Source: Octopus sinensis (Eukaryota). Taken from it: a stretch of 64,000 nucleotides of DNA. Under the pieces are notes generated by a model. That model had not been told where the DNA came from. It worked only from the letters and a program-made list of their open reading frames with translations, and ran no database searches. Below, one piece after another: positions 48,705-57,364 of this stretch. Both the position numbers and the translations under genes were made by a program. The number at the start of each line of letters is the position of its first letter. The first letter of the stretch is position 1. Location of the stretch: positions 56,172,001 through 56,236,000 of the forward strand of contig NC_043007.1 of NCBI RefSeq assembly GCF_006345805.1. Direction: 5' to 3'.

Positions 48705-49630
48705 TACACACGCGCGCACTCTCTCTCTCTCTCTCTCTCTCTCTCTCTCTCTCTCTCACACACACACACACACACATATACACACACATGCATATTTGTG
48801 TGTGTGTGTGTGTGCGTGTGTGTTTGTGTGTGTGTGTCTTTGTGTCTGTGCTTGTTCCCTCATCTCCGCTTGACAACCGTTGATAGAATAAGTACTAGGC
48901 CTAAGGCGGTGCTCTAGCACGGCCGCAGTGACAAGTTAAAAAATAAAAGAATACATGTATGCATGTGTGTGTATGCGTATGTATGTATATATATATATAT
49001 ATATATATATATATATATATATATATTATATATATATATATATATAATATATATATATATTGTGTGTGTGTGTGTGTGGTGTGTGTGTGTGTATGTTTAT
49101 ATATAATTTTGTAATTTTAAACATGATGCCAAAATATCAGCTACAGATTAATAACAATTTACCATATGACATATGATATGAAACATAATAGGAAAAAGTA
49201 AATAAAATCTGTGGGTTATGGTATTATAGCCAACGAGACGAGTGAATCCAACTAAAAAGCGAAACTGTGTGGTCAACTTGTTTTGTTGAAACTTCAACCC
49301 TATTCAACTGCACACTGATAGGTAAAATACAGTTGTCTCCCTTACATACTGGAAGCATGCTAACTTCAGCTACGCTTTCCAATGAATATAGTTTATGACA
49401 TTTACAGAAAAGTGAAACTGATCAAATATATGGAAGTTCATATATGAACATAAACAGTCTGCTAGTTCGGCTAAAGAAGAACAGGTTTGTTAAATAAAAA
49501 GAGAGAAAATAAAGTTTAGTTGGCTGCTGGTAATGGTCAGACTACGGATGGTTAGGTAAACAGATAGATAAGAAGACAGATAGACAAACAGAGAAACAGC
49601 GACAAAGACAAACAGACAGTTAGATAGATA

Positions 49631-51887
49631 TATTAAGCCACACAAGGCCGAATACAAAGGGGACGAATACAATGTAGAGGTTTACTTTTCGTAGAAAAAG
49701 AGGAGGAAAAAATTCTGATCAAAAGGGATCGTGTATCAGAACAGAATAAAAATGTAAAAAACAGATTAGGTTTGTCCGTGGAAATAAAATCCTACGAAAA
49801 AGACTACCGTAACCTCAGGCAAGGAGGGAAAAAACACATGAGAGCAAAGTGTTCTCTCTCTCTCCCTCTTTTGGATTTACAGGATCATGCTCAAAGTGGT
49901 TTCGTCATTCGAGGGTACCATCTTTGCTACATTCACTCACCTTTTATCGCATCTTTCATGAGACAAAACTTTCCTCTCTATCTTACCTTCCTTTTCATGT
50001 AAAAGTTGATGAACTATTGGCTAGAGACGAAAGTGTTTGTCTCTAAATCTTTCGCTCGAGTCCACCACACACATTCTTTCACAATGGCCACCAGTACGAT
50101 GAAAACTGCATTGCCTTCTCGCTTAAGAGAAGGTGGCGGGGCAATTTTCACGATAGACTCGACCGACAACCGATTTCGTCTCACATGTGACAGTAGCAGC
50201 CATTCGGCATAAGCCCACAGGTCCGAAATGGTTGGACACTGCACGAATGCGTGCAGAACGTTTTCATCGCTCTGACCGCATCTCGGGCAAGTCGGTCCGG
50301 TGTATCTCGAACGGGCAATGCTACCCGATAGCACTTCCAGGCCAGGGATCTCTGGTGATTCTCCATAGGTCCCAGCCAGAAAGTTGTCCTGAACAGACGG
50401 GTCAGGTGTTCTTCGTCGACGCCCAGATTCTCCCCGAGAACGTCGTCGCTCTTCCCCTCCACTAATCCTCTATAGAACGCCTTCGTGGAATTGAAGTCGC
50501 ATAAGTTTGGTCCCGGACGGTAGGGTTGCGGGAAAGCGTGCCTGACAAACGGCGACTACACCTGTTCACCGTCGTCTATGAAGCGCCGGAGATATCGCAG
50601 TCTCGGTGCATGTCTGTGCATCATCAACCACGACATGCCCAGCCCTCCATTTAGTGGGTGTTGACCGCAAATGGATCGCCTAACCATCGGAACGCTTCCC
50701 TTCCACAAAAAGCGGAAGAGTATATGTTCCAGTTTGGTGATGGAAGAGTATACGTTGCAGTTTGGTAACGCTCAGAGGGTAATTGATGACGGATGCGATG
50801 TACACATTCGCTACCTTCGTCCGATCTTTTAGGAATAGCTTCCTCTCGGCCACACTACTCGTTATCTCGTCCCAGTTCTTCTCCATTTGGAGGTCCGGTC
50901 CGAACCAGACCCCTAGCAATTTAACCGGTCCGTCGGTCCAGCGTCCCACGATGGAGACGTTCTTGGACGGCAATGGGCTTGCTTCTCCGGGTGCCGAGCC
51001 GCAAGCCCACTGACTTTTCCCAGTTAATTTTCGCTCCCATTACCGCTTTGTATTCTTTTAGTGTCTCGCCGACCAGGTCGATATGCCGGGTGACGTATGC
51101 AGACACGCTCCTACAGCATCCCAGTTCTCGCGGGATACGACTCAGCGTCGCCAGCTTCTGCAATAGTGGCTCTAGAGTTAATACATACAGAAGCGACGAG
51201 AGGGTGCATCCTTGACGGACAGAACGCGTGATGTTAAATGGTCTGGACAGGTAACCATTTACGCAAACTGCCGAGCGGATGTCACTGTTTCAGGCAGCGA
51301 TCCAACCGCGGAAGATAGCACCGAAATCAGCCGCTCTAAGGACAGCCTCCAAGTAGTGATGGTCGACTCTATCGAAAGCTTTTGATTGATCCAAATTGAT
51401 TAGCGCTCCACCCATGCCAGGTTCCCAATCTATGATGTAACGCATCAAATGGAGGTTGTCATGGATATTCCTGCTCGGCACGGTGCATGTTTGCTCCTTG
51501 TTGACCAGTTTCTCGATGACAAGCGCCAACCTCCAGGTTAGCACTTTGGCCAAAATCTTCAAATCTGCTTTCAGCAGAGTGATGGGCCTGCAGTTATCTA
51601 TGACGTTCCCCTTGTTTGGATCTTTGTTTAACAGTGCCACTGCTCCTCTCTTCATAGAAACGAGGATACTTCCGTTTTGCTGCCAGTTGCAGTAGACTGC
51701 TGCCAAGACACCTCCAAACAAGTCTGGCAAGTGACAATAGAGCTCATAGGGCAGACCATCCAAGTCTTGTCTCCCGCGCAGCCTGCTATCGCATCCCGTA
51801 CGTCCGCGGCCGTGATGGATCTTTCACAACACTCCGCCTCTCTTGCTGAGAGTCGTGGCAGGCCATGCAGGTAGGCACTAAAGTCCA
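49631..51887 (-). mobile_element. 5'-truncated degenerate Tx1 LINE flanked by (GATA)n
   Basis: DGLPYELY, RPITLL, LDQSKAFDRVDH, CPRCGQSDENVLHAFVQC. (GATA)n at 51888-51968 and degenerate GATA/GACA at 49560-49630. Confidence 0.92.
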
Positions 51888-56692: not shown

Positions 56693-57364
56693 ATATCTAT
56701 CTATCTATCTATGTATCTACCTACCTATCTATCTATCTATCTATCTATCTATCTATCTATCTATCTATCTATCATCTATCTATCTATCTATCTATCTATC
56801 TACTTATCTATCTGTCTGTCTGTCTGTCTGTCTGTCTGTCTGTCTGTCTGTCTGTCTGTCTGTCTGTCTGTCTTTCTGTTATGATTCTGAAATTAAATAC
56901 ATACATATCAACACAAAGCATATCGGTGGAGAACAAGCTCAAGCAAAACATGTCTGATATTGTTATAGAGCACAGCAAAGAAAAGCCCTACGTCGTCAAA
57001 AAAAGCAGTTGCTGTTAACATCTCTTCCAATATCCGAGTGAAGAGTAAGGAATATTTATCGATATCTACTTCCAGGGCTGGTCCTCACGTTTACACCAAT
57101 GGTTTTGACGAATTTTGCCACTTTTCAAAATGTCTAATTCAAAATGTGAAAAGGCTAGGATTTTCAGGCAAAGAACGAGACAACCCAGCACACACAATAC
57201 AAGTACAACCTGTATGTTTAACAATAAAAATATGCAGGACTTTCTAAAATTCAACATGCATTGATGTTATTCAAAGTTCTAGCGATGGAGCTTTGTTTGT
57301 TTTTTAGTAAGCTGCTCATTGATCCTAGGTGTGTGGTATAAAGATGGCATCTAAATAACATGGC

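Follow-up and report, generated by a model that had tools for sequence, protein, structure and literature searches.

A LINE family of Octopus sinensis, likely of L1/Tx1 type, whose copies mostly lie in (TATC)n/(GATA)n microsatellites and strongly prefer one orientation

The window analyzed here, a 64,000-nucleotide stretch of Octopus sinensis contig NC_043007.1, contains two 5'-truncated LINE copies lying on opposite strands. On the plus strand, a (TATC)27 tract (53915..54022) forms the upstream part of the target of a younger-subfamily copy (54024..56693), which shows 92-94% identity with its closest full-length relatives, matches PF00078 and PF13966, and carries a reverse transcriptase (RT) in the frame 54026-55402 and, after a frameshift, a C-terminal zinc finger in the frame 55179-56213. 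This copy closes with a T-rich 3' UTR, AATAAA at 56682-56687 and a terminal GAAACA and, as the preliminary description had recorded, passes without poly(A) into a TATC tract; this downstream part of the target (56694..56872, plus strand) is an interrupted or compound (TATC)n at 56694-56812 followed by (TGTC)15. The minus-strand copy (49631..51887), decayed and of an older subfamily (~79-83% identity to other copies), encodes RT, has undergone several deletions and is damaged at its 3' end, including the AATAAA. The upstream part of its target (51888..52016, minus strand) consists of sense-strand (TATC)20 at 51888-51967, equivalent to (GATA)20, with degenerate (TGTC)n before it, and its downstream flank (49560..49630, minus strand) comprises two TATC units and then a degenerate, TGTC-rich TGTC/TATC tract. 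The coordinates first given for the two copies were borne out, with the plus-strand end read as 56693, and the statement that TATC flanks both copies on both sides held for the 5' sides (27 and 20 units) and for the 3' side of the plus copy but not for the 3' side of the minus copy beyond those two units.

Over most of their extent the two copies are 77% alike; they belong to different subfamilies and are thus independent insertions, as had been proposed. Their 5' truncation had been taken as random; the two truncation points are just ~45 bp apart in element coordinates, so that the window alone is weak evidence on this point, but 98 other copies range from 30 to 6,344 bp. A truncation hotspot common to both window copies was considered and rejected because copy lengths in this sample spread evenly. 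Three plus-strand tracts, (TATC)16 at 41221..41284, an interrupted (TATC)n at 41689..41798 and (TATC)11 at 45438..45481, have no element remnant adjoining them, in agreement with their earlier reading as empty sites. An old minus-strand copy (7215..10400, upstream limit not fixed; endonuclease at 9096-9617, RT at 7707-8490) contains a large internal deletion and shares the 3' motif of the family. It had been offered as a partial counter-example; its 3' flank is indeed not TATC, but it belongs to a distant sister lineage with 50% RT identity. The window also holds a second, unrelated LINE (33939-37138, plus strand), whose endonuclease and RT are encoded by two overlapping frames of 729 and 357 residues and whose RT is ~25% identical to that of the family described here. 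Open frames at 61010-62561 and 4448-4894 (both minus strand) resemble, by eye, pieces of Penelope-type RT and GIY-YIG type, and fragments at 22143-22493 (minus strand) and 38180-38599 (plus strand) are, on the same visual impression, putative remains of a transposase of Tc1 type and of an integrase from an LTR element.

Copy counts for the family were obtained as exact-pattern matches genome-wide: a 17-nt 3' motif returned 9,222 matches in the 2.72-Gb genome (control pattern 0), and a 27-nt 5' motif returned 315, corresponding to full-length 5' ends. Full-length copies measure 6.1-6.3 kb and carry at least two types of ORF1. One copy, at locus L101, encodes an unbroken 1,141-residue ORF2 (P0001) with an APE endonuclease, RT and a C-terminal zinc finger (PF03372, E 5e-15; PF00078, E 1e-29; PF13966, E 2e-7), in which the endonuclease catalytic motifs align with those of the L1 endonuclease; among solved structures its closest match is human L1 ORF2 (E 1e-54), with R2 proteins at E 1e-20 or weaker. 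For the Tx1 clade, ORF1 is described in the available text of PMC5203782 as an RRM plus a CCHC knuckle. Here ORF1 shows one C-x2-C-x4-H-x4-C motif by eye, a PF00098 match under the Pfam cut-off (E 0.003), no RRM family match, and look-alikes in Atlas (0.90-0.93) among CCHC and ZCCHC3-type RNA-binding proteins. In a quick RT tree of 47 rows, composed of sequences other than named Tx1, Kibi or Koshi elements, the lineage of the old window copy is the sister branch of the subfamilies with TATC flanks; all 11 rows together have support 97, and the 10 that remain when the old copy is set aside have 96. Homolog searches returned no named Tx1 protein among their matches. The family is labeled from its domain make-up rather than from a tree with named families, and judged in this way it is likely an L1/Tx1-type LINE. 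Among its young subfamilies (L101/L048/L094 versus L031/L093, and L032), ORF2 is ~90% alike and the ORF1 regions have strongly diverged.

The association of 5' ends with TATC was evaluated on the first 98 distinct copies listed (100 matches) in 30 Mb of one contig, a sample that favors intact copies because an exact 17-nt end was required. Within a junction window running from 40 bases before to 25 bases after the 5' junction, 68/98 copies had at least three exact TATC units and 0/98 had GATA, and no reversed copy was found in this sample, compared with 0.47% of 22,078 65-bp windows having at least three TATC units in 144 kb of background DNA that includes the studied window. This comparison with microsatellite background had been set in advance as the test of the idea, together with orientation, and both came out on the side of targeting, with full-length 5' ends following (TATC)3 or more in 29/30 cases. 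When interruptions were allowed and four copies were dropped (two reaching N gaps, one with a junction beyond the references, one with an internal deletion), a tract was present at 71/94 5' junctions. Its frequency was 27/30 in the youngest class (at least 93% to a reference copy) and 22/34 and 22/30 in the older classes, 19/26, 24/35, 23/28 and 5/5 across length classes, and 62/84 after ten tandem copies were left out. Among the 23/94 resolved copies lacking a tract are some at unique sites and others in (TA)n or (TAT)n, together with what are probably some unresolved junctions. Head-to-tail trains of copies spaced only by (TATC)n were also seen (L041, L056, L058, L069, L022 and others), with 10/94 copies lying inside the 3' tract of another.

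The 3' junctions could be counted across the whole genome. At exact spacing, 5,674 of the 9,222 3' ends continue into TATCTATC and 18 into TATGTATG, a 315-fold preference for TATC over TATG, which differ by one base, although TATG tracts are at least as common as TATC tracts (random DNA totaling 80 kb has 22 of the former and 5 of the latter, and the window 26 and 10). A further 428 ends continue with TAT followed by a base other than C, and 251 with TATCT and a pyrimidine, some of them in (TA)n or (TAT)n. Within the 98-copy sample, TATC was present at 75 3' flanks and poly(A) at none, and 84/91 canonical 3' ends continued with TAT. Older subfamilies behave similarly at the 3' end, with TATC in 16/30 by a strict pattern and in more by eye. 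The earlier claim of a fixed orientation stands as a very strong bias that is not absolute: four matches, at three places, have a 3' end followed by GATAGATAG within 3-12 bases, in reversed orientation, against the 5,674. Two of these three reversed copies, L172 and L173, are flanked by (GATA)n at either end and terminate in GAAA(CA), without TATC.

Both junctions, their phase, the orientation, the missing poly(A), the position of target duplications after GAAAC(A/T) and the discrimination against TATG were read directly at the level of the family, and together with 5' junctions far above background they support the proposal that GATA is targeted. We estimate a probability of about 0.8 that copies of this LINE family occupy (TATC)n/(GATA)n tracts in a single orientation, likely through an endonuclease nick of the GATA strand of tracts already present and priming on read-through RNA. 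The preference is strong but leaky, with about one quarter of copies elsewhere, and a specificity of the enzyme itself for GATA is what we infer from these sequences. Following established target-primed reverse transcription, a first nick would fall at about 5'-GATA^GATA-3', within a few bases on account of microhomology, and the freed ...AGATA-3'OH would pair with UAUC units immediately downstream of AAUAAAGAAAC(A/U) in the RNA, a pairing under which copying would start upstream of any poly(A). The second nick would in most cases be 8-17 bp distant, occasionally at least 30 bp, and generate the duplication, and copying would usually halt early, giving 5' truncation. No stable fold was found at the 3' ends of the LINE or of the SINE described below (z 1.8, -0.6 and 0.5).

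An alternative that we regard as unlikely, though it survives best among those considered, is that RNA-DNA pairing mainly picks the target: nicking would be loose, near TAT or GTAT, and which nicks are used would be settled by the RNA's read-through tail, with one enzyme taking the LINE to (TATC)n and a SINE to GGTAT-type sites. The SINE in question is an abundant 234-bp SINE-like repeat (L103:6550-6783 and 75 other copies in the fetched loci; random DNA totaling 80 kb contains 12) without a matching Rfam family. In favor of the pairing account, the last ~42 nt of this SINE match the LINE 3' end, it likewise has no poly(A) and ends six bases past the common motif, its duplications of 12-18 bp start with GGTAT, AGTAT, GATAT or TAT, and the LINE's own off-target sites have only a starting TAT in common; moreover, a search with a single tight pattern that coupled a LINE-type 3' UTR to the exact tail of the SINE gave 0 matches. 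On the other side, 0/222 distinct LINE ends continue with GGTAT, in a set enriched for chosen flanks, and the SINE tail scores nearer to the sister lineage of the old window copy (60) than to the young LINE family (50), so that the SINE may be partnered by a different family, one that encodes its own endonuclease. That a single enzyme serves both RNAs, with read-through bases choosing the site (UAUC leading to (GATA)n, GGUAU to other sites including the SINE body), appears somewhat less probable again; if true, a few base changes in the RNA would re-aim target choice. The SINE was at (TATC)3 in 0/76 copies, which indicates that the TATC flanks of the LINE are no by-product of microsatellite density. 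SINE copies often lie in tandem inside their own body, and one copy lies in (GATA)n (L144). The TATC/TATG preference of the LINE, together with a SINE that has another target, provides a natural test of endonuclease against RNA-DNA pairing in LINE target choice.

A different possibility, which we consider improbable, is that the element itself generates the repeats, either from an RNA-encoded (TATC)n tail or from short duplicated seeds that slippage later enlarged, in which case existing microsatellites would not be targeted. RTE-type elements are reported to create microsatellites in the portions available of PMC2887409 and PMC9115989, slippage after insertion surely alters tract lengths, and one insertion (L093/L177) carries a TATC-like leader of ~20 nt inside its duplication. 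Against this stand the symmetric lengths of the tracts, with medians of 78 bp (5') and 79.5 bp (3') over 70 pairs (Wilcoxon p = 0.56), and insertions at tract edges, where at least 20 units lie upstream and one or two downstream; in L260, for example, 21 units precede an 8-bp duplication that is followed by fewer than two units, and L214, L057 and L282 resemble it in having a long tract outside the duplication at the tract edge. L159 was dropped as an edge insertion, the 5' end of a relative coming next. Truncated copies at unique sites (L009, L049, L128, L138 and L139) have no added TATC at either junction, and the reversed copies have GATA on both sides. An RNA-templated repeat tail of the RTE/L2 type, confined to the 3' end, accordingly finds no counterpart at unique or reversed sites or in the symmetric tracts, and in copies selected because their 3' tracts are short, in no case did the 3' side clearly exceed the 5' copy of the duplication in TATC content; L018 and L037 give only a hint of RNA-templated TATC units.

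Duplications were picked by eye because the automatic caller was too noisy inside repeats, with 42/300 false calls. The 12 selected measure 8-17 bp, apart from one of 32 bp; 10/12 start with TAT six bases past AATAAA or inside a (TA) run there, and the remaining two begin 1-2 bases before that point owing to microhomology. Equal 5' and 3' tracts, the lack of poly(A) and duplications starting at or just before TAT together argue that the repeat is target and not tail. By eye, long duplications of ~30-90 bp were also seen in compound repeats (L056, L037, L018 and L214). The L093 insertion (L093:422-460, also L177) is a full-length copy that lies at a unique site and has an 11-bp duplication, and its leader, as one case, suggests that transcripts may start in the upstream repeat. 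For L268, contigs from four sequencing runs were compared for an empty allele, and none was read: one run crosses the 5' junction and another leaves the reference there (14 letters unshown), in tables swamped by element copies. That empty sites carry the repeat gains indirect backing from the insertions at tract edges. The weakest reading, passive enrichment or assembly artifact, in which copies survive or contigs join at microsatellites, has in its favor a very microsatellite-rich genome and 2/98 5' ends that reach N gaps, but it predicts no strand bias, fixed 3' phase or 315-fold discrimination against TATG, the association is strongest in the youngest copies and absent from the SINE control, so that we give it next to no credence.

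Microsatellite targets reported for non-LTR elements in the sections available include ACAY, AC, TC, TTC and TAA (PMC3812793), TTCC and TTTC for crocodilian Tx1 families (PMC4494074), and TG for Togen (PMC4640811). The octopus family most resembles Kibi on (TC)n and Koshi on (TTC)n in teleosts and crocodilian Tx1 on (TTCC)n/(TTTC)n, as an APE-type L1/Tx1 LINE in a pyrimidine-rich microsatellite (PMC4494074, PMC3812793, as far as their available text goes), and TATC at 68/98 5' and 75/98 3' flanks compares with the threshold of more than 20% of flanks given in the available text of PMC4494074. It differs from them in its TATC/GATA unit, its invertebrate host and its thousands of copies, and the likeness described here is one of targeting features. 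Waldo (ACAY)n, Mino (AC)n, Dong (TAA)n and Togen (TG)n are likewise non-LTR elements in microsatellites, Waldo in a tetranucleotide (PMC3812793 and PMC4640811, in the parts available), whereas Waldo and Mino (R1 clade by the title cited there) and Togen (near NeSL) belong to other clades and use other repeat units. A parallel to the priming step may be found in SART1Bm and R1Bm, for which target-like RNA is proposed to anneal to the nicked strand for reverse transcription, R1Bm needing downstream target sequence; their targets, however, are telomeric or rDNA, and SART1Bm inserts with poly(A), which the octopus family has in 0/98 copies (PMC7265360, available sections). SINEU is proposed to ride on the machinery of Tx1-Mar and has its target in common with that LINE (PMC4494074, available text), whereas here the 3' tail is common and the targets differ.

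A GATA-targeting LINE was not found in the literature searched, although Repbase, a 2004 survey, and figure 3 and the supplement of PMC4494074 may hold one; the present family adds GATA to the short list of repeats targeted by APE-type LINEs. For Octopus vulgaris, the available text of PMC13282606 gives 80 L1-Tx1 families, 13 of them with 421 recently active near-full-length insertions, among which annotated families the GATA family may be included; that available text states no insertion targets for them, the main text contains "GATA" 0 times, and another octopus repeat paper, in its available part, names no Tx1 and no targets (PMC9115989). The scale of the family, with more than 9,000 ends, 315 full-length starts and at least one unbroken ORF2, lets junction rules be read statistically, and GATA microsatellite markers in the octopus group will often have element sequence as their flank. 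Words of the element were found in sequencing runs of six organisms from nine studies. A 30%-identical relative in the cluster of protein P0093 is present in the limpet Patella caerulea as 11 almost identical copies whose locus tags run consecutively along a single chromosome, an arrangement that hints at a putative tandem, target-specific array.
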